From a virus, in the UHGV virus genome UHGV-0139114: a stretch of 28,745 bases of DNA; one strand, 5' to 3'. This document shows, piece by piece, positions 3,510 to 26,187 of the stretch. Under the pieces are notes generated by a model, which saw only the letters and a list, made by a program, of their open reading frames with translations, was not told the origin of the DNA and made no database searches. Position 1 is the first letter of the stretch; every line of letters begins with the position of its first letter. Made by a program: the position numbers and the translations under genes.

Positions 3510-5805
3510 AGCCTCCGGGCGTTTTGTCCCTCCGTCAGCATTTGCTGCAGGCACCGGTAAGGCGTTTACCGGTGCTTATGCATGGAACGCGCCACGCGAG
3601 GCTGTCGGGCGCGAAAGACCCCTTACACGTGACGAGATGCGTCAGGTGCAAGGTGTTTTATCCACGATTAACCGCCTGCCTTACTTTTTGCGCTCGCTGT
3701 TTACTTCACGCTATGACTACATCCGGCGCAATAAAAGCCCGGTGCACGGGTTTTATTTCCTCACATCCACTTTTCAGCGTCGTTTATGGCCGCGCATTGA
3801 GCGTGTGAATCAGCGTCATGAAATGAACGCCGACGCGTCGTTGCTGTTTCTGGCAGAGCGCGACCAGTATGCGCGCCTGCCGGGGATGAATGACAAGGAG
3901 CTGAAAAAGTTTGCCGCCCGTATCTCATCACAGCTTTTCATGATGTATGAGGAACTCTGCGATGCCTGGGTGGATGCGCATGGCGAGAAAGAATCGCTGT
4001 TTACGGATGAGGCGCAGGCTCACCTCTATGGTCATGTTGCTGGCGCTGCACGTGCTTTCAATATTTCCCCGCTCTACTGGAAAAAATACCGTAAAGGACA
4101 GATGACCACGAGGCAGGCATATTCTGCCATTGCCCGTCTGTTTAACGATGAGTGGTGGACTCATCAGCTTAAAGGCCAGCGTATGCGCTGGCATGAGGCG
4201 TTACTGATTGCTGTCGGGGAGGTGAATAAAGACCGTTCTCCTTATGCCAGTAAACATGCCATTCGTGATGTGCGTGCACGCCGCCAGGCAAATCTGGAAT
4301 TTCTTAAATCGTGTGACCTTGAAAACAGGGAAACCGGCGAGCGCATCGACCTTATCAGTAAGGTGATGGGCAGTATTTCTAATCCTGAAATTCGCCGGAT
4401 GGAGCTGATGAACACCATTGCCGGTATTGAGCGTTACGCCGCCGCAGAGGGGGATGTGGGGATGTTTATCACGCTGACCACGCCGTCAAAGTATCACCCG
4501 ACACGTCAGGTCGGAAAAGGCGAAAGTAAAACCGTCCAGCTTAATCACGGCTGGAATGATGAGGCATTTAATCCAAAGGATGCGCAGCGTTATCTCTGCC
4601 GTATCTGGAGCCTGATGCGCACGGCATTCAAGGATAATGATTTACAGGTCTACGGTTTGCGTGTCGTCGAGCCACACCACGACGGAACGCCGCACTGGCA
4701 TATGATGCTTTTTTGTAATCCACGCCAGCGTAACCAGATTATCGAAATCATGCGTCGCTATGCGCTCAAAGAGGATGGTGACGAAAGAGGAGCCGCGCGA
4801 AACCGTTTTCAGGCAAAGCACCTTAACCGGGGCGGTGCTGCGGGATATATCGCGAAATACATTTCAAAAAATATCGACGGCTATGCACTGGATGGTCAGC
4901 TCGATAACGATACCGGTAAGCCGCTTAAAGATACTGCCGCGGCTGTTACCGCATGGGCGTCAACGTGGCGCATCCCGCAATTTAAAACGGTTGGCCTGCC
5001 GACAATGGGGGCTTACCGTGAACTACGCAAATTGCCTCGCGGCGTCAGTATTGCTGATGAGTTTGACGAACGCGTCGAGGCTGCTCGCGCTGCCGCAGAC
5101 AGTGGTGATTTTGCGTTGTATATCAGCGCGCAGGGTGGGGCAAATGTCCCGCGCGATTGTCAGACTGTCAGGGTTGCCCGTAGCCCGTCGGATGACGTCA
5201 ACGAGTACGAGGAAGAAGTCGAGAGAGTGGTCGGCATTTACGCGCCGCATCTCGGCGCGCGTCATATTCATATCACCAGAACCACGGACTGGCGCATTGT
5301 TCCGAAATTTCCGGTCGTTGAGCCTTTGACTTTAAAAAGCGGCATCGCCGCGCCTCGGAGTCCTGTCAATAACTGTGGAAAGCTCACCGGTGGTGATACT
5401 TCGTTACCGGCTCCCACACCTTCTGAGCACGCCGCAGCCCTGCTTAATCTGGTTGATGACGGTGTTATCGAATGGAATGACCCGGAGGTCGTGAGGGCGC
5501 TCAGGGGCGCATTAAAACACGGCCTGAGAACACCAAACCGTCAGCAAAGAAACGGAAGCCCGTTAAAAGCGCATGAAATAGCGCCATCGGCCAGGCTGAC
5601 CCGGTTGGAGCGTATGCAAATTACCCGTATCCGTGTTGACCTTGCTCAGAACGGCATCTGGCCTCAGCGATGGGAACTTGAGGCGCTGGCGCGTGGCGCG
5701 ACCGTAAATTATGACGGGAAAAAATTCACGTATCCGGTCACTGATGAGTGGCCGGGATTCTCAACAGTAATGGAGTGGACATCATGGCAAAAATTCACGA
5801 GGTAA
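3499..5805 (+). CDS. A: Rolling-circle replication initiator endonuclease, P2 gpA-like (start at ATG 3499; track start 3457 is TTG)
   Basis: From the 3499 ATG the protein begins MAVKASGRFVPPSAF, which I recall as the P2 gpA N-terminus; contains HWHMMLF and YIAKYISKNIDGY, typical of rolling-circle initiators with the active-site tyrosines. Confidence 0.9.
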   Translation: MAVKASGRFVPPSAFAAGTGKAFTGAYAWNAPREAVGRERPLTRDEMRQVQGVLSTINRLPYFLRSLFTSRYDYIRRNKSPVHGFYFLTSTFQRRLWPRIERVNQRHEMNADASLLFLAERDQYARLPGMNDKELKKFAARISSQLFMMYEELCDAWVDAHGEKESLFTDEAQAHLYGHVAGAARAFNISPLYWKKYRKGQMTTRQAYSAIARLFNDEWWTHQLKGQRMRWHEALLIAVGEVNKDRSPYASKHAIRDVRARRQANLEFLKSCDLENRETGERIDLISKVMGSISNPEIRRMELMNTIAGIERYAAAEGDVGMFITLTTPSKYHPTRQVGKGESKTVQLNHGWNDEAFNPKDAQRYLCRIWSLMRTAFKDNDLQVYGLRVVEPHHDGTPHWHMMLFCNPRQRNQIIEIMRRYALKEDGDERGAARNRFQAKHLNRGGAAGYIAKYISKNIDGYALDGQLDNDTGKPLKDTAAAVTAWASTWRIPQFKTVGLPTMGAYRELRKLPRGVSIADEFDERVEAARAAADSGDFALYISAQGGANVPRDCQTVRVARSPSDDVNEYEEEVERVVGIYAPHLGARHIHITRTTDWRIVPKFPVVEPLTLKSGIAAPRSPVNNCGKLTGGDTSLPAPTPSEHAAALLNLVDDGVIEWNDPEVVRALRGALKHGLRTPNRQQRNGSPLKAHEIAPSARLTRLERMQITRIRVDLAQNGIWPQRWELEALARGATVNYDGKKFTYPVTDEWPGFSTVMEWTSWQKFTR

Positions 5806-6236
5806 AGCTGCACGCAAAATATTTCGACCTTGTGCTGGAAGGAAAGAAACGTGCAGAGTTTCGGAAAAATGACCGTAATTATGAGCGCGGGGACACGCTG
5901 ATTTTGCATGAATGGGTGCAGGGTGTGTTTACGGGGCGAAAGGTTGAAGCCCGGATAACAGATGTTACTGACCTGTCAGACTGGCTGGAAGATTATGTCT
6001 TGCTAAGTATTGAGCTGCTTAATACAAGCGCATATGAGATTGTGAACTGGAAAGAACTTAGTGAGCGTGGTCTGGTATTCAGAATTAATCATGAAATTAT
6101 GCATCAGCTCGGCCTTGCTGTTATGTATGAACCAGAGACGGGGATGTCTGGCGGGGCAATGGTTACCACGGATGGAGCATGGAACTATTCAGATGAACAG
6201 ATTGAGAGTGCAAAGCAAAACGGGTGGCTTGGATAA
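5784..6236 (+). CDS. DUF3850-like (ASCH/PUA-like fold) protein with a C-terminal extension (150 aa from ATG 5784)
   Basis: N-terminal 60 aa (KIHEVKLHAKYFDLVLEGKKRAEFRKNDRNYERGDTL) look like DUF3850 from memory; track start 5748 is GTG, and ATG 5784 has GGAG 9 nt upstream. Confidence 0.55.
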   Translation: MAKIHEVKLHAKYFDLVLEGKKRAEFRKNDRNYERGDTLILHEWVQGVFTGRKVEARITDVTDLSDWLEDYVLLSIELLNTSAYEIVNWKELSERGLVFRINHEIMHQLGLAVMYEPETGMSGGAMVTTDGAWNYSDEQIESAKQNGWLG

Positions 6237-6442
6237 TGCACGGAATACCAGGCGAGATACCGCAACATAACACTAAAAATATCAAGCTGATGGCTATTGT
6301 TCACCGTCTACAGCAGATTATGGTCAACGAAAATCTGACGCCTGACGAGCTGGTCGGGTGTGCTGAAATAGTCCGGGATAATTACGGGCGGTTTAACTAT
6401 ATCGGTCAGTCCAGAGTTGCGCCACCACCACGCAGACGATAG
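6236..6442 (+). CDS. Small hypothetical protein (68 aa), start overlapping the DUF3850 stop (TAATG)
   Basis: ATG 6236 shares one base with the upstream stop TAA at 6234-6236; no family recognised. Confidence 0.4.
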   Translation: MHGIPGEIPQHNTKNIKLMAIVHRLQQIMVNENLTPDELVGCAEIVRDNYGRFNYIGQSRVAPPPRRR

Positions 6443-6515
6443 AGAACGCCGCCAGTCGTGAAACTTGTTTTCAGGGCTGGCGGGGTTGAACAACGAGCGA
6501 AGTGAGGCGTTAGCA

Positions 6516-7457
6516 TTAAGTTAATTTTAATGAATGGTACTCTATCGAGCTGATTGTAGATGCGATATATTTACGATCATTTACAGAGAGTATTGCCGCT
6601 AGTAGACGACATACCAGAGCCTGCATTTGTAGCAATATATCGCTACCATATTGACAATCATTGATACTAGAGAAACCAAGCGGTTGCCCATTAAAAATGG
6701 CTTCATGAAAATTATCATTGCGTATAACTGAAACATTACATTCATCTGTTGCCCATGACGGGATTTTTACACCGTAATTTTCGCACATCCAATATACTCT
6801 ATTTTGATGAGATGGTTTTTTCTCTTTAATGACTTTATCCCTTTCATCCCATGCTATAGCAAAACAGCAATCAAGAGCCATATAAAGATACTGGAATTTC
6901 TCAAAGGAAAGGTATAGTGGGTTATGTGATAGGAATAGGGAGTGTATCACCGCAGCTATTCTTTTAATGGAGCGATCATCTTTTTGTTTGTCTTTTATAT
7001 AGTTAAGTGCTAGCTCTATTACTTCTTTTTCAGAGCATCCAACGAGAATAAAGTCAGTTAACTTAGTGGGCTTGATAGTGGTTGCATCAAGAAAACCAGC
7101 GTCAGTGGTTGTCAATCTTATACCCTTGAAAAAAGAGAGGCACCACACAACAAAGTTGAGAGTTTCTAACGAGGATGTGTTTTTTAATTTTAGTGTGTGC
7201 GTTTTGGGCATGCCGAATACTCGGTAACTATAAGGCATTGTGCATGTGTCACCATTAAGGTTATATACCTTTCGATTCCCAGGGTATATCCAACCATTAA
7301 CAACGTTTTTATCATTGTTAATACGTTCCACTTTCTCAATAAGACCGGGTAAAGTACGCAAAGAAAATTGTTCAGTCTCAATGTTAACTTCTACTGGATA
7401 GTATCCAAACTCCGAAATAATCTCATTTGGTTGCTGTTCATCAACTTCACCTTGCAT
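6516..7457 (-). CDS. Orphan 313-aa protein with an RNxxxH (HEPN-like) motif; candidate abortive-infection / defence nuclease
   Basis: Long ORF on the opposite strand to the surrounding phage genes in an AT-rich segment; GGAG 7 nt upstream of ATG 7457; motif RNDNFH at residues 246-251 (nt 6705-6722). Not a P2 gene that I recognise. Confidence 0.6.
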   Translation of the reverse strand: MQGEVDEQQPNEIISEFGYYPVEVNIETEQFSLRTLPGLIEKVERINNDKNVVNGWIYPGNRKVYNLNGDTCTMPYSYRVFGMPKTHTLKLKNTSSLETLNFVVWCLSFFKGIRLTTTDAGFLDATTIKPTKLTDFILVGCSEKEVIELALNYIKDKQKDDRSIKRIAAVIHSLFLSHNPLYLSFEKFQYLYMALDCCFAIAWDERDKVIKEKKPSHQNRVYWMCENYGVKIPSWATDECNVSVIRNDNFHEAIFNGQPLGFSSINDCQYGSDILLQMQALVCRLLAAILSVNDRKYIASTISSIEYHSLKLT

Positions 7458-7695
7458 AACTTTCTCCGTTCAAAAACAGGCACGATAATTCTCGTAAGCC
7501 TATCATGTTCGCAAAGTATCCATACCTGTGGATTTTGTAAATTTAAGTTGATTTGTCATTAAATAAGCCGTTGCATGCAACAAGTGAATGTTTTTGCATG
7601 CGTCGGGGATGTCCGTTCAGGCTGCGTGCGGTCAGGACTGGTGCGGATCCATAGTATCTATGCAACTGCATTAAAACCGCCCCATGAAGCGGGCG

Positions 7696-22301: not shown

Positions 22302-22829
22302 ATGCAACACTTAAAAAACATTATTGCGGGAAATCCAAAAACGGTTGAGCAATATAAACTGACAAAGAATTTTGATGTTATCTGGTTATGGTCCGAAGAG
22401 GGAAAAAACTGGTATGAGGAAGTAAGTAATTTTCAGGAAGACACGATAAAGATTGTTTACGACGAGCATAATATTATTGTCGCCATCACCAAAGATGCCT
22501 CCACGCTTAACCCTGAAGGTTTTAGCGTTGTCGAGGTTCCTGATATTACCGCCAACCGACGTGCTGATGACTCAGGTAAATGGATGTTTAAGGATGGTGC
22601 TGTGATTAAGCGGATTTATACGGCAGACGAACAGCTGCAACTGGCAGAATCACAAAAGGCCGCGTTACTTTCCGAAACCGAATCCGTGATTTTGCCGCTG
22701 GAGCGCGCTGTCAGGCTGAATATGGCAACAGATGAGGAGCGCAGTCGACTGGAAGCATGGGAACGCTACAGCGTTCTGGTCAGTCGTGTGGATACTGCAA
22801 ATCCTGAATGGCCGGAAATGCCACAATAA
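22302..22829 (+). CDS. G: Tail fibre assembly chaperone G
   Basis: 175 aa immediately after H. Confidence 0.8.
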
Positions 22830-23019
22830 GTGATATGATCTCTTGTGTGAATTAACATAGCTATAGTACAGAGTAAAACCTAATCGGACAGTCCGCTCTG
22901 TGCCATTACCGGACATACTGAGCAGAAGGCTAAAAGAACGCTTTCAGGACATATAGCAAGGGAGCAGGGATGATAGAATTAACCCAGTATATTTAATGTT
23001 TCAATCATGATAGTTCCTG

Positions 23020-23047
23020 AATTAAAGGGGGGTATCCCCCTTTAATT
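23020..23047. terminator. Bidirectional hairpin terminator between convergent G and the 92-aa gene
   Basis: Perfect 12-bp stem AATTAAAGGGGG / CCCCCTTTAATT with loop GTAT; overlaps the stop codon of the minus-strand gene. Confidence 0.55.
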
Positions 23048-23324
23048 ACTTGTACCACTCAGTCTGAATTTGGTTACTAACTTCATCTGGGAGATTGTAC
23101 CAATAAGCTGAGTTATTGGTTGCGTCTACAACAATAAGCTTATCATCACTATCCATAACCGCCCTCACAATTTTGGCTGCATCCTCGGCAGAGTAACTAC
23201 AGTTAACATACCAGTTCGATTCAGTTGTTAAAGCCCAATTTCCTAAAGATTTAATCGCATTATACACAGCCGCATAATCTTTCGTTTTAATGAGGTCGTA
23301 AGTAATAAATAAATTATTGGCCAT
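23046..23324 (-). CDS. Hypothetical 92-aa protein (cargo)
   Basis: ORF with GGGAG 8 nt upstream of the ATG, in an AT-rich island; no family recognised. Confidence 0.55.
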   Translation of the reverse strand: MANNLFITYDLIKTKDYAAVYNAIKSLGNWALTTESNWYVNCSYSAEDAAKIVRAVMDSDDKLIVVDATNNSAYWYNLPDEVSNQIQTEWYK

Positions 23325-23343
23325 AAATCATCTCCCAAAGGGC

Positions 23344-23370
23344 AAAGAAAAAAGCGCCTAGAAAGGCGCT
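23344..23370 (-). terminator. Rho-independent terminator between the DUF3606 gene and the 92-aa gene
   Basis: Stem AGCGCCT / AGGCGCT (23353-23359, 23364-23370), loop AGAA; on the minus strand it is followed by TTTTTTCTTT. Confidence 0.6.
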
Positions 23371-23376
23371 CATATA

Positions 23377-23595
23377 TTAATGGTCTTTAAGCCATGCCTG
23401 TACTTTCTTAGCCGAATGACCTACAGCCTGTACGGCTTGAACAAGTTTGGCCTCGCTAACTCCAAACTTTTCAGCCCAATCACGTCTTTCGTAATCCTGT
23501 TTGATACTTATTAAATCATTGTCAGGGGTACCGATTTTGGTCTTATCATCAGCCATTTTACTGATTCCTCGTGATACAGGCTTATACCTGCCCAT
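23377..23595 (-). CDS. DUF3606-like small protein (alternative start at ATG 23556 giving 59 aa)
   Basis: Pattern DYERRDWAEKFGVSEAKLVQAVQAVGHS resembles DUF3606 family members as I remember them; both candidate starts have an SD. Confidence 0.55.
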   Translation of the reverse strand: MGRYKPVSRGISKMADDKTKIGTPDNDLISIKQDYERRDWAEKFGVSEAKLVQAVQAVGHSAKKVQAWLKDH

Positions 23596-24043
23596 TAGTT
23601 ATATGGCTCCCGTGCCGCTTCGTAAACGTTCAATAATCAAACAATTGACACTGATCATAAAACCAGTTAAAGGATTTGACTCTACCTTGGATATATGATG
23701 CCACCCCCTTTATATTGTTGTCGGTAACTCACAGGCATTGAACTCATGCTGGTGAGTGAAAGGCCACATAAACGCCCAATATTTAAACTGCCCTCAGCAG
23801 CGTTCGCGGAGCAATATACAGGCTTCGTATTCAATCCTTGCCCTACGAGAAACCCTAGCCGCAACCTCGTTTTCAAGTGTCAGTAAGTTCTTTGTCAGAC
23901 CTCATACAGTTTTAAGCTGGGTGAGGTGCATGGGGGAAGTTGAAGCCTTAACTGTTGAGGTAAATCGAACCATAAGTGTGCAATTTTTCAAGCCCGGCGC
24001 TATTTTAGTCTTGAAAACAATTAGTACGCCCCAAGGACAACTC

Positions 24044-24736
24044 ATGATCGAATTTATCGCAGAGCATATAAACACAGTAAGCACACTTATCTCCGCTTTG
24101 GCTGCATTGCTAACAGCAGTTGCTACATTTTTCTTGTGGAGAGTAACAAGGCTATTAGCAGACGAGACAAAAAGGATGGTTGACGCATCAGTTCAACCTC
24201 ACGTCGTTGTGACTCTTGAACCAAATTCTTGGGCTGCTTTTTATTTTGATATCAATATTGCTAATACCGGAAATGCCCCAGCCTATGATATTGAAATCGG
24301 ATTTAATCCCCCACTGGTAAATGCAGAACATAGAAAAAATAAAGGTATACCATTTAGCAAGGTTAGCGTATTGAAAAACGGCCATTCGCTCAACAGCAGT
24401 CTTTGTAAGTATGAACAGATTAAAGATCAAGTTTATACTGTTAGTATTAGTTGGTCTAAACAGCCGGGCTCAACTGAAAGAGAGCGGAATGAGTATTCTT
24501 ATGATATGGCTTCTTTCGAGGGGGTTAGCTACTTAGGTGCAAGGAGTCCAATGACACAGATAGCCGAGCAGGTGAAAAAGATTAGAGAAGACTGGAGGCC
24601 GATTTCCCAGGGAAGCAAAAAAATTAAAACAGACAACTATAATTCAAGTGACAGAGCCGAGGAACAACGAGCACGTGAAGAGTGGTATCAGACCACTGCA
24701 AAGAAATGGGATAAAGAAAAGCAAAAAGATAACTAA
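24044..24736 (+). CDS. Membrane-anchored protein of about 230 aa (cargo); candidate superinfection-exclusion / abortive-infection protein. Alternative start at ATG 23930.
   Basis: AAGGA 6 nt upstream of ATG 24044; predicted single N-terminal transmembrane helix TVSTLISALAALLTAVATFFLW, then a beta-rich domain and a K/E-rich tail; AT-rich; occupies the Z/fun locus. Confidence 0.55.
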   Translation: MIEFIAEHINTVSTLISALAALLTAVATFFLWRVTRLLADETKRMVDASVQPHVVVTLEPNSWAAFYFDINIANTGNAPAYDIEIGFNPPLVNAEHRKNKGIPFSKVSVLKNGHSLNSSLCKYEQIKDQVYTVSISWSKQPGSTERERNEYSYDMASFEGVSYLGARSPMTQIAEQVKKIREDWRPISQGSKKIKTDNYNSSDRAEEQRAREEWYQTTAKKWDKEKQKDN

Positions 24737-24871
24737 TACAATTGACCTGCTCCCCATAAATTAGCATACCACAATCTCAGGTCCGCTCTTCGCTCAAAAC
24801 AGGCTGTCAGATTTGACAGAATTTTGGTTACGTAATTTATCAGTTGGAAAATGAGTGAGTACAAATCAGGA

Positions 24872-24900
24872 CAGGCGGGCGAATAGCCTGCCTTTTCTTT
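24872..24900 (+). terminator. Possible weak terminator after the cargo gene, before the FI promoter region
   Basis: Short stem CAGGC / GCCTG with a 9-nt loop followed by CCTTTTCTTT. Confidence 0.3.
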
Positions 24901-24996
24901 ATCTGTTGTTTCATCCACTGACCAGCCAGGTCAAATAGCGTCTCATGCACTACCCAACAGAAAATAGTTGCACCCATTAACCACGGAGTTAAACGG

Positions 24997-26187
24997 ATGA
25001 GTGACTATCATCATGGCGTGCAGGTGCTGGAGATTAACGACGGCACCCGCGTCATTTCCACTGTATCCACGGCCATTGTCGGCATGGTCTGCACGGCCAG
25101 CGATGCGGATGCGGAAACCTTCCCCCTCAATAAACCGGTGCTGATTACCAATGTGCAGAGCGCAATTGCAAAGGCCGGTAAAAAAGGCACGCTGGCGGCA
25201 TCGTTGCAGGCCATCGCCGACCAGTCAAAACCGGTCACCGTTGTCGTGCGTGTGGAAGACGGCACCGGCGACGACGAGGAAACGAAACTCGCGCAGACCG
25301 TTTCCAATATCATCGGCACCACCGACGAAAATGGTCAGTACACCGGACTGAAAGCCCTGCTGGCGGCGGAGTCGGTAACCGGTGTTAAACCGCGTATTCT
25401 CGGTGTGCCGGGACTGGACACCAAAGAGGTGGCTGTTGCACTGGCATCAGTCTGTCAGAAGCTGCGCGCTTTCGGGTATATCAGCGCATGGGACTGTAAA
25501 ACCATTTCCGAGGTGAAAGCCTACCGTCAGAATTTCAGCCAGCGTGAGCTGATGGTCATCTGGCCGGATTTCCTCGCATGGGATACGGTCAGCAGTACCA
25601 CCGCCACCGCGTATGCCACCGCCCGTGCGCTGGGTCTGCGCGCTAAAATCGACCAGGAGCAGGGCTGGCATAAAACGCTGTCCAATGTCGGGGTGAACGG
25701 TGTTACCGGCATCAGCGCATCCGTCTTCTGGGATTTGCAGGAGTCCGGCACCGATGCTGACCTGCTTAACGAGTCAGGCGTCACTACGCTGATTCGCCGC
25801 GACGGTTTCCGCTTCTGGGGTAACCGTACCTGCTCTGATGACCCGCTGTTCCTCTTTGAAAACTACACCCGCACCGCGCAGGTACTGGCTGACACGATGG
25901 CTGAGGCGCACATGTGGGCGGTGGACAAGCCCATCACCGCAACGCTGATTCGCGACATCGTTGACGGCATCAATGCCAAATTCCGTGAGCTGAAAACAAA
26001 CGGCTATATCGTGGATGCGACCTGCTGGTTCAGCGAAGAATCCAACGATGCGGAAACCCTCAAGGCCGGAAAACTGTATATCGACTACGACTATACACCG
26101 GTGCCTCCTCTTGAAAACCTGACCCTGCGCCAGCGTATTACCGATAAATACCTGGCAAATCTGGTCACCTCGGTTAACAGCAATTAA
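24997..26187 (+). CDS. FI: Tail sheath protein FI
   Basis: 396 aa, begins MSDYHHGVQVLEINDGTRVIS; position before the tube gene. Confidence 0.9.
   Translation: MSDYHHGVQVLEINDGTRVISTVSTAIVGMVCTASDADAETFPLNKPVLITNVQSAIAKAGKKGTLAASLQAIADQSKPVTVVVRVEDGTGDDEETKLAQTVSNIIGTTDENGQYTGLKALLAAESVTGVKPRILGVPGLDTKEVAVALASVCQKLRAFGYISAWDCKTISEVKAYRQNFSQRELMVIWPDFLAWDTVSSTTATAYATARALGLRAKIDQEQGWHKTLSNVGVNGVTGISASVFWDLQESGTDADLLNESGVTTLIRRDGFRFWGNRTCSDDPLFLFENYTRTAQVLADTMAEAHMWAVDKPITATLIRDIVDGINAKFRELKTNGYIVDATCWFSEESNDAETLKAGKLYIDYDYTPVPPLENLTLRQRITDKYLANLVTSVNSN

Follow-up and report, generated by a model that had tools for sequence, protein, structure and literature searches.

The cargo slot between G and FI

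We analysed UHGV virus genome UHGV-0139114, a 28,745-nucleotide stretch of viral DNA referred to here as the window, and focused on the island of cargo genes that lies between the tail fibre assembly gene G and the tail sheath gene FI of this P2-like prophage. Gene G (22302-22829, plus strand; Pfam Caudo_TAP, E 8.9e-34; RefSeq 'tail fiber assembly protein') and gene FI (24997-26187, plus strand; Pfam Phage_sheath_1, E 2.4e-33) are the left and right anchors of the locus and are not themselves cargo. Since G ends at 22829 and FI starts at 24997, the interval between them (22830-24996) is 2,167 bp long, and its GC content is 0.413, compared with 0.488 for H and G, 0.559 from FI onward, 0.574 for the late genes and 0.522 for the window as a whole. 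The AT-rich stretch of about 2.2 kb that an earlier note on this DNA had placed between G and FI is therefore present as described.

Three genes occupy the interval. Two are on the minus strand: a 92-amino-acid (aa) gene at 23046-23324 (phrog_1090), a solitary phage accessory gene whose product is predicted to adopt a ferredoxin-like fold, and the 59-aa DUF3606 gene at 23377-23556 (phrog_10779). The third, which we call ORF1 (24044-24736, plus strand, 230 aa, phrog_11802), carries the label 'DUF8453' in some RefSeq records, the newer ones. The open reading frames (ORFs), the PF12244 match and a single hydrophobic helix in ORF1 bear out the earlier description of a DUF3606-like gene and a 92-aa gene on the minus strand and a membrane-anchored protein on the plus strand. 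The divergent arrangement of the genes also stands, around a spacer (23557-24043) holding a sigma-70-like site, the ORF1 leader, a run of C and a Shine-Dalgarno sequence, but the spacer is 487 bp long and not roughly 450 bp. Its length follows from the start of the DUF3606 gene. The DUF3606 protein, which is helical, matches PF12244 with an E-value of 4.3e-18 (65.3 bits, against a gathering cut-off of 24.3); its homologues all start MADDK, and both RefSeq and the PHROG profile (matching residues 14-72) use M14, so the gene is assigned to 23377-23556. An upstream ATG at 23595, which would give 72 aa, was rejected as unsupported by the homologues.

Comparison with other phages shows that the interval is the Z/fun (G-FI) cargo slot of a P2-like prophage, with conserved flanks and varying content. 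Aligned with Wphi, a P2-type record and phage vB_EcoM-12474II (hereafter 12474II), the left flank (22830-22905) is conserved as far as 22905 (...GACAGTCCGCTCTGTGCCA, ending GTGCCA) and diverges from there; the alignment resumes at about 24779 (GGTCCGCTCTTCGCTCAAAACAGGCTGTCAGATT...) in a right flank (24779-24996) that is common to P2-like phages and includes the region upstream of FI. All sequence between the flanks differs. The slot is therefore where the earlier note located it, but the truly variable core is narrower than the whole interval from 22830 to 24996, spanning 22906-24778. In a Megablast search, 60 other phage records matched only about positions 1952-2167 of the interval, at its right-flank end. 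A census covered 5,426 complete Escherichia coli genomes, with the island counted as present at 80% coverage or more. The conserved segment of about 215 bp upstream of FI was found in 978 of these genomes and the island in 99 of them (about 10% of the 978), so the slot is variable, as had been claimed for Z/fun in P2-like prophages.

The slot has other cargos. Wphi (orf44) and the P2-type record have a 299-aa gene there, and 12474II has a 360-aa gene (locus L133, 2317-3399, minus strand), the N-terminus of whose product matches the PADLOC profile Aga_REase-PNTD1-PNTD2 (an Argonaute-associated restriction endonuclease) at E 4e-18; a defence-type gene thus fills the same slot in another P2-like phage. 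P2 Z/fun, Wphi orf44 and the PD systems of Vassallo et al. 2022 share with the window the slot, its conserved flanks and a low-GC cargo between late operons, whereas the cargo sequences show no similarity (for ORF1 against the P2-type 299-aa gene, BLASTP E 1.3). A joined query of left and right flanks found an unoccupied slot in none of 89 phage records. That the locus is a variable hotspot has already been stated (PMC9519451; bioRxiv 10.1101/2024.10.15.618418), and Vassallo et al. 2022 identified it as the second defence-enriched hotspot of P2 (PMC9519451). In one genome, E. coli E6474 (NZ_CP116981.1, 1569209-1572716), an IS4-like insertion sequence, ISVsa5, is annotated inside the region matching the island, and the match is in two pieces.

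The island itself is not new. Along its whole length it shares 95.7% nucleotide identity with AJ512682, 'Bacteriophage P2-EC53 proviral Z-region, ORF1', a record in which ORF1 is annotated as a 'putative lysogenic conversion protein' and in which flanking inverted repeats, a ribosome-binding site and a -10 signal are marked. The island is also 96.1% identical to phage R18C (MN016939) over 100% of the interval, and the R18C paper describes the fun(Z) position as holding two short ORFs of unknown function (morons), of which one appears in some records as DUF3606 (PMC6823313). Both P2-EC53 and R18C have the same three genes in the same order with the same flanking repeats, at about 4% sequence divergence from the window. 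PHROG families of unknown function already exist for all three proteins. What the window holds is thus an already deposited and described P2-EC53/R18C-type filling of a known slot. Neither record assigned a function: that of EC53 annotated ORF1 only, and that of R18C missed DUF3606, annotating an antisense 44-aa ORF in its place. A literature search found no paper mentioning P2-EC53 or DUF8453. E. coli KC-Dl-1 (NZ_CP063046) carries the window at 100% identity, with the prophage adjoining cpxP.

The repeats in the flanks match what AJ512682 and AJ512683 label as 'left/right inverted repeat'. The full-length similarity of the inverted repeats annotated in AJ512682 is weak, and what convinces is limited to an arm of 10 nt and a direct repeat of 9 nt. 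The left arm (AATCGGACAG, of the form AATC(G/T)GACAG) lies at 22882-22891 and the right arm (CTGTCAGATT) at 24804-24813, within the hairpin CTGTCAGATTTGACAG (24804-24819); the direct repeat GTCCGCTCT is exact, with identical copies in this window at 22891-22899 and 24781-24789. A terminator-like hairpin follows in the right flank at 24873-24893. Elsewhere in the window there is a second low-GC cargo region at about 5780-7460 (GC minimum 0.37 at 6601-7200), between the replication endonuclease and portal genes. This is the other classical P2 hotspot, and by the RefSeq annotation of KC-Dl-1 it holds a DUF3850 gene, a gene of 68 aa and a hypothetical gene of 313 aa.

Three genes that part company elsewhere

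One way to view the island is as a single three-gene anti-phage system, in which a sensor, a regulator and a membrane effector share the divergent control region. The co-occurrence of the genes in E. coli agrees with this: among the P2-type prophages of the census the genome counts are 102 for the minus-strand cassette, 105 for ORF1 and 99 for the island as a whole, and the three genes occur together in 20 IMG/VR contigs at 94-98% identity. So does the standing of the locus as a recognised defence hotspot. However, the components of a multi-gene system would be expected to co-occur across unrelated contexts, and these three do not. ORF1 homologues are found without the other two genes in a tRNA-Leu element of enteropathogenic E. 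coli (EPEC) E2348/69, beside a serine recombinase; in a tRNA-Gly island of NCTC11023; in Xanthomonas and Klebsiella, where integrases adjoin them; and in a sphingomonad chromosome between the rib and mrd operons. Conversely, the DUF3606 and 92-aa cassette occurs without ORF1 beside integrases of other elements, and DUF3606 stands by itself in Yersinia ruckeri, Burkholderiales and Pseudorhodoferax (beside Ku/LigD). In Y. ruckeri the 234-aa gene that lies upstream of DUF3606 looked like a possible ORF1 homologue but proved not to be one. A hidden Markov model (HMM) census of all fetched loci found DUF3606 in one of 52 viral loci with a 92-aa homologue that is not of P2 type, and neither small gene in any of five viral loci with a divergent ORF1 (0/5).

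Nor do the neighbours of these genes reveal a conserved partner. Around 27 diverse 92-aa loci the neighbouring genes are heterogeneous, integrases being the commonest, with regulators and primases next in frequency. ORF1 homologues from 72 species gave 138 immediate neighbours, which are likewise heterogeneous: most are unrelated genes of housekeeping or mobile elements, and two GajB-like helicases, two methyltransferases and two resolvases are among them. The genes are also not orphans, as they had been called: the 92-aa family counts 2,409 cluster representatives at E up to 1e-3, ORF1 has 242 relatives and is present in 72 species of alpha-, beta- and gamma-proteobacteria, and DUF3606 is a Pfam family. 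Separately, we noticed that a Klebsiella prophage (L007, 4376-7424) and a Hafnia prophage (L016, 3166-5279) are alike in having a short integrase-family gene of 183-188 aa, several small ORFs and then the main integrase, and that the equivalent integrase-proximal position carries either an ORF1 homologue or a 92-aa homologue. Judged from this layout, the two genes look exchangeable as cargo in these prophages as well.

The adjacent minus-strand genes also have different histories. Compared with the related cassette at locus L011 (4765-5279), the DUF3606 protein is 97% identical in amino acid sequence with a proportion of differing synonymous sites (pS) of 0.29, whereas the 92-aa protein is 77% identical with synonymous sites saturated. 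This mismatch implies a recombination breakpoint at or near the hairpin between the two genes, an intrinsic-terminator-like structure on the minus strand (GAGCGCC-TTTCT-AGGCGCT followed by a T-run, 23352-23371) that lies between the DUF3606 stop and the 92-aa start, and at the equivalent position of which L011 and L016 have a hairpin with changed stem bases. Beyond the 92-aa gene there is a perfect hairpin with a 12-bp stem (I4, AATTAAAGGGGG gtat CCCCCTTTAATT, 23020-23047), 100% complementary and terminator-like on both strands, which overlaps the 92-aa stop codon by 2 nt and is likely, from its sequence, to be a bidirectional terminator. Hence two of the three genes, the 92-aa gene and DUF3606, are each directly followed by a terminator-like hairpin of their own. 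Terminator-like hairpins in general are more frequent than expected, with seven observed against 1.8. Separate terminators, unequal divergence of adjacent genes, occurrence of each gene without the others in many contexts and the lack of a PADLOC match together make the three-gene system very improbable in our estimation. Because the genes separate in other contexts, our conclusion is instead that each of the three modules is autonomous and that the island is their mosaic; it is not a three-gene system and holds no obligate pair.

The ratio of nonsynonymous to synonymous substitution rates (dN/dS) is 0.04 for DUF3606 (against L011) and 0.12-0.15 for ORF1, and the 92-aa protein is conserved despite its saturated synonymous sites. 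By these substitution patterns all three genes are under purifying selection. This bears on the proposal that the ORFs are remnants in decay, or artefacts of gene calling, within filler DNA that has no function, to which the uniformly 'hypothetical' annotations and the conflict between GenBank annotations (the antisense 44-aa ORF of R18C against DUF3606) might be thought to point. Selection and conservation effectively refute it, and with large families and confident structure models weighing against it as well, we give the proposal next to no credence.

The 92-aa protein deserves separate consideration. Its confident AlphaFold2 (AF2) model has a b-a-b-b-a-b-b-a topology, a ferredoxin-like fold of the Cas2/VapD/BPSL1038 type, and on this model we take the fold class as established. 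Membership of the Cas2 superfamily is plausible, with the fold match coming from the model and sequence scores that are sub-threshold: PF09827 (CRISPR_Cas2) matches at E 0.097, under its gathering score; 15 of 90 relatives match the same Pfam family weakly (best E 9.8e-5); and the profile of the wider family matches BPSL1038 (7vxr) at E 0.2, the register being the structurally correct one. BPSL1038 is a Cas2/VapD-like DNase that has a further helix at the C-terminus and a D11(X20)SST motif placed at the end of b1 and the b2-b3 turn (PMC10491678). The 92-aa protein has in common with it the b-a-b-b-a-b core, the extra C-terminal helix, an acidic residue (D10) where b1 ends and a Ser/Thr (S36) in the b2-b3 turn. 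Among close homologues D10 is present in 46 of 46 and S36 is invariant, and across the wide family position 10 is D or E in 78 of 90 and position 36 Ser or Thr in 77 of 90. Unlike in Cas2, VapD and BPSL1038, however, the sole invariant residue of the wide family is D61 and not D10, and the gene has neither Cas1 or CRISPR nearby nor an antitoxin partner. The domain also occurs as two tandem copies inserted in a 1,507-aa Baseplate_J/CBM_5_12 protein (P0265), and as tandem-duplicated proteins of 200-260 aa (P0270, P0284, P0288, P0306, P0357 and P0385). The duplications hint at a dimeric unit and a possible structural or binding module. On the model, the protein is most likely a homodimeric nucleic-acid-binding or nuclease module acting through a conserved acidic/Ser pocket of D10, S36, D58 and D61.

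A fold of this kind, in a protein of about the right size with a small gene immediately upstream, invites comparison with VapX/VapD, and DUF3606 and the 92-aa gene could accordingly be thought of as a type II toxin-antitoxin or abortive-infection pair in which the small upstream protein would neutralise the Cas2-like toxin and the intervening hairpin would set the antitoxin:toxin ratio; the cassette, hairpin included, is indeed conserved in a second type of element. A toxin of this sort would be expected to keep its antitoxin adjacent, yet DUF3606 is missing from 51 of the 52 other viral 92-aa loci. Hafnia-type prophages have an unrelated gene of 41-55 aa upstream of the 92-aa gene, and phage contig L020 has no small upstream partner at all. 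Furthermore, DUF3606 stands alone in several genomes, the two proteins differ in their divergence (97% against 77% aa identity), and the fused tandem copies and the Baseplate_J insertion argue for a benign binding or dimer module. We therefore regard a VapXD-like pair as improbable, and of the minus-strand 'pair' in the earlier note what stands is that both genes are present, not that they are bound to one another.

ORF1 and its leader

ORF1 is taken to start at 24044, a position that fits PHROG 11802 over residues 1-230 of 230 as well as the wider family, whose members are each about 230 aa long. Its AF2 model (predicted local distance difference test, pLDDT, 86.9) has a long N-terminal helix (residues 2-49), a seven-strand, immunoglobulin (Ig)-like beta-sandwich (54-154) and helices at 169-188 and 201-229, the C-terminal tail being charged and helical. 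There is one hydrophobic segment, at about residues 12-32. Across 52 homologues the mean number of lysines and arginines is 0.29 on the N-side flank of this segment and 3.56 on the C-side, with a median N-tail of 10 residues, a charge bias that follows the positive-inside rule and from which the predicted orientation is N-out, C-in, with most of the protein cytoplasmic. From its sequence, then, ORF1 is predicted to cross the inner membrane once, with a short N-terminus outside and the Ig-like domain in the cytoplasm. Its most conserved part is the membrane-proximal helix, residues 33-49. Fold searches returned generic Ig-like sandwiches and uncharacterised phage membrane proteins only, and no named match was found in Pfam, PHROG, NCBIfam, PDB or BFVD.

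Upstream of ORF1, the spacer contains a single sigma-70-like site (23688-23716, plus strand), whose -10 hexamer, TATATT at 23711-23716, equals the -10 annotated in AJ512682; the total number of promoter-like matches is not above chance. Directly after this predicted -10 lies a TGT-N12-ACA dyad (23716-23733, TGTTGTCGGTAACTCACA), the only one in the whole window. About seven such dyads are expected by chance in the window, and we do not count it as evidence of a signal.

The last part of the spacer is a conserved ORF1 leader (about 23903-24043), whose span takes in the run of C (24029-24032) and the Shine-Dalgarno sequence AAGGA (24033-24037). About 130 nt upstream of the ORF1 ATG are conserved in E2348/69, NCTC11023, Kosakonia, Pantoea leporis and an IMG/VR contig, which are unrelated contexts, and this conservation is absent in Biostraticola, Pectobacterium and more distant homologues. 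RNAalifold, applied to seven sequences from five contexts, proposes a long-range helix (23926-24038) that pairs 23926-23935 (..GCAUGGGG) with 24029-24038 (CCCCAAGGAC) and so spans the run of C and the Shine-Dalgarno sequence. The helix has eight pairs, with 94.6% of cells paired; two pairs have changed on both sides (e.g. U-A to C-G) and four have changed from G-C to G-U. On this model the helix may occlude the ORF1 ribosome-binding site. The folding energy of the long 5' region is ordinary (overall z-score -0.09), and an Rfam scan of the island gave no match.

The leader can also be read as a conserved peptide in the ORF1 frame (..TISVQFFKPGAIL.LKTIST..), with substitutions biased to third codon positions. 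There is, however, no conserved start codon and no consistent end among copies. In the window, Pantoea and E2348/69 the leader frame runs on into that of ORF1; a TGA closes it in Kosakonia and NCTC11023; and in R18C, P2-EC53 and all other P2-type copies it is shifted by an extra C, P2-EC53 also having an early TAA. The leader may code for an N-terminal extension or an upstream ORF, the third-position bias arguing for coding and the lack of a conserved start or stop and the frameshift in most copies arguing against. The length of the run of C is what distinguishes the window here. It is C4 in the window, one C shorter than in P2-EC53, R18C and the IMG/VR copies (Pantoea leporis has a 3-nt longer CCACCCC), which places a 38-codon upstream stretch in frame with ORF1, open from ATG 23930. 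This explains why RefSeq calls a 268-aa protein there. The C4 run may be a homopolymer assembly error.

What the island may do

Searches aimed at known functions returned little for any of the three proteins. No PADLOC-DB v2.0 profile matched them significantly (best E 0.027, DUF3606 against PDC-M03B), in line with the earlier statement that no product is recognisable as a described defence system; lacking such a match, the island is not among the PD-T4, PD-T7 and PD-lambda systems. Scans against Pfam, PHROGs and NCBIfam gave only DUF or unknown-function families, and PDB sequence searches, with single proteins and with profiles, gave nothing significant.

Taken together, we favour, with slightly better than even confidence, the reading that the known Z/fun slot here holds a catalogued mosaic of three autonomous morons, of which ORF1 is the most plausible anti-phage candidate. 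The three genes would be morons carried for the benefit of the lysogen, and at least one of them may act against competing phages, location being the sole pointer to this. ORF1, the most plausible of the three, could be an inner-membrane-tethered exclusion or abortive-infection factor, its cytoplasmic beta-sandwich and membrane-proximal helix contacting an incoming phage component or a membrane partner of the host, and the leader helix over its ribosome-binding site may hold back its translation. Prophages are known to encode inner-membrane superinfection-exclusion proteins, e.g. HK97 gp15, T4 Imm and P22 SieA. Like these, ORF1 is predicted to be a small, single-gene, membrane-anchored moron of a temperate phage with no need of a partner; unlike them, it is predicted to have a distinct cytoplasmic Ig-like domain and a conserved membrane-proximal helix, and it has no detectable homology to them.

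Several observations weigh against this reading. The proteins match nothing in PADLOC or NCBIfam and no named Pfam family other than DUFs, and we infer the anti-phage role of the island from its location alone. Outside P2, guilt by association is weak: ORF1 homologues frequently sit as solitary insertions between housekeeping genes, and of their 138 immediate neighbours no more than a handful are defence-like; to this extent a defence reading of the island is overstated. The three genes are nearly always together in E. coli P2-type prophages (99-105 genomes), and on comparative data alone a functional link among them within that clade is possible. The changes in the leader helix come from few independent lineages, and single-sequence folding of the helix is unremarkable (z -0.62). 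Lastly, R18C is described as virulent, yet keeps the island (PMC6823313), which fits a phage-side role as well as a lysogen-side one.

This last point leads to the alternative that the island has no anti-phage role, serving instead host physiology or stress tolerance (lysogenic conversion), or the phage's lytic cycle or counter-defence. In its favour, besides R18C and the solitary ORF1 insertions in chromosomes, are the positions of 92-aa homologues in phages, which include early or replication regions besides integrase ends, and the relatives of DUF3606 among small chromosomal genes. In Pseudorhodoferax (L031, 2977-6412), for instance, a DUF3606 homologue lies between two Ku genes, next to LigD and with other small ORFs, a context that suggests stress- or DNA-repair-associated small proteins rather than phage defence. 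Against it are the hotspot location, where other fillings are defence genes, the AT-rich moron architecture and the absence from the sequence of any pointer to a specific physiological function. We consider a non-defence role a real possibility, though less likely than not.

There is also a bolder form of the reading that we favour, in which ORF1 (DUF8453) founds a new family of single-gene anti-phage factors, acting by exclusion or abortive infection, that is silenced by its leader in enterobacteria; we hold this to be doubtful. Were it true, the ORF1 family would be spread patchily through alpha-, beta- and gamma-proteobacteria, with a one-helix inner-membrane anchor and its bulk predicted to be cytoplasmic, and the enterobacterial ORF1 would stay translationally silent until some trigger opened the leader helix over the Shine-Dalgarno sequence. 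Separately, the Cas2-like 92-aa family, about 2,400 clusters that are mostly phage-borne, could be a new phage nuclease or Cas2 mimic.

The P2-like group counts among the most common prophages of E. coli, and many defence systems have already come from its two cargo slots. The filling described here is found in R18C, a phage that can be cultured, and in roughly 2% of complete E. coli genomes. Should none of its genes affect phage infection, the island would caution against assigning function by location in a prophage hotspot. ORF1 and the Cas2-like 92-aa protein each open a widespread uncharacterised family.

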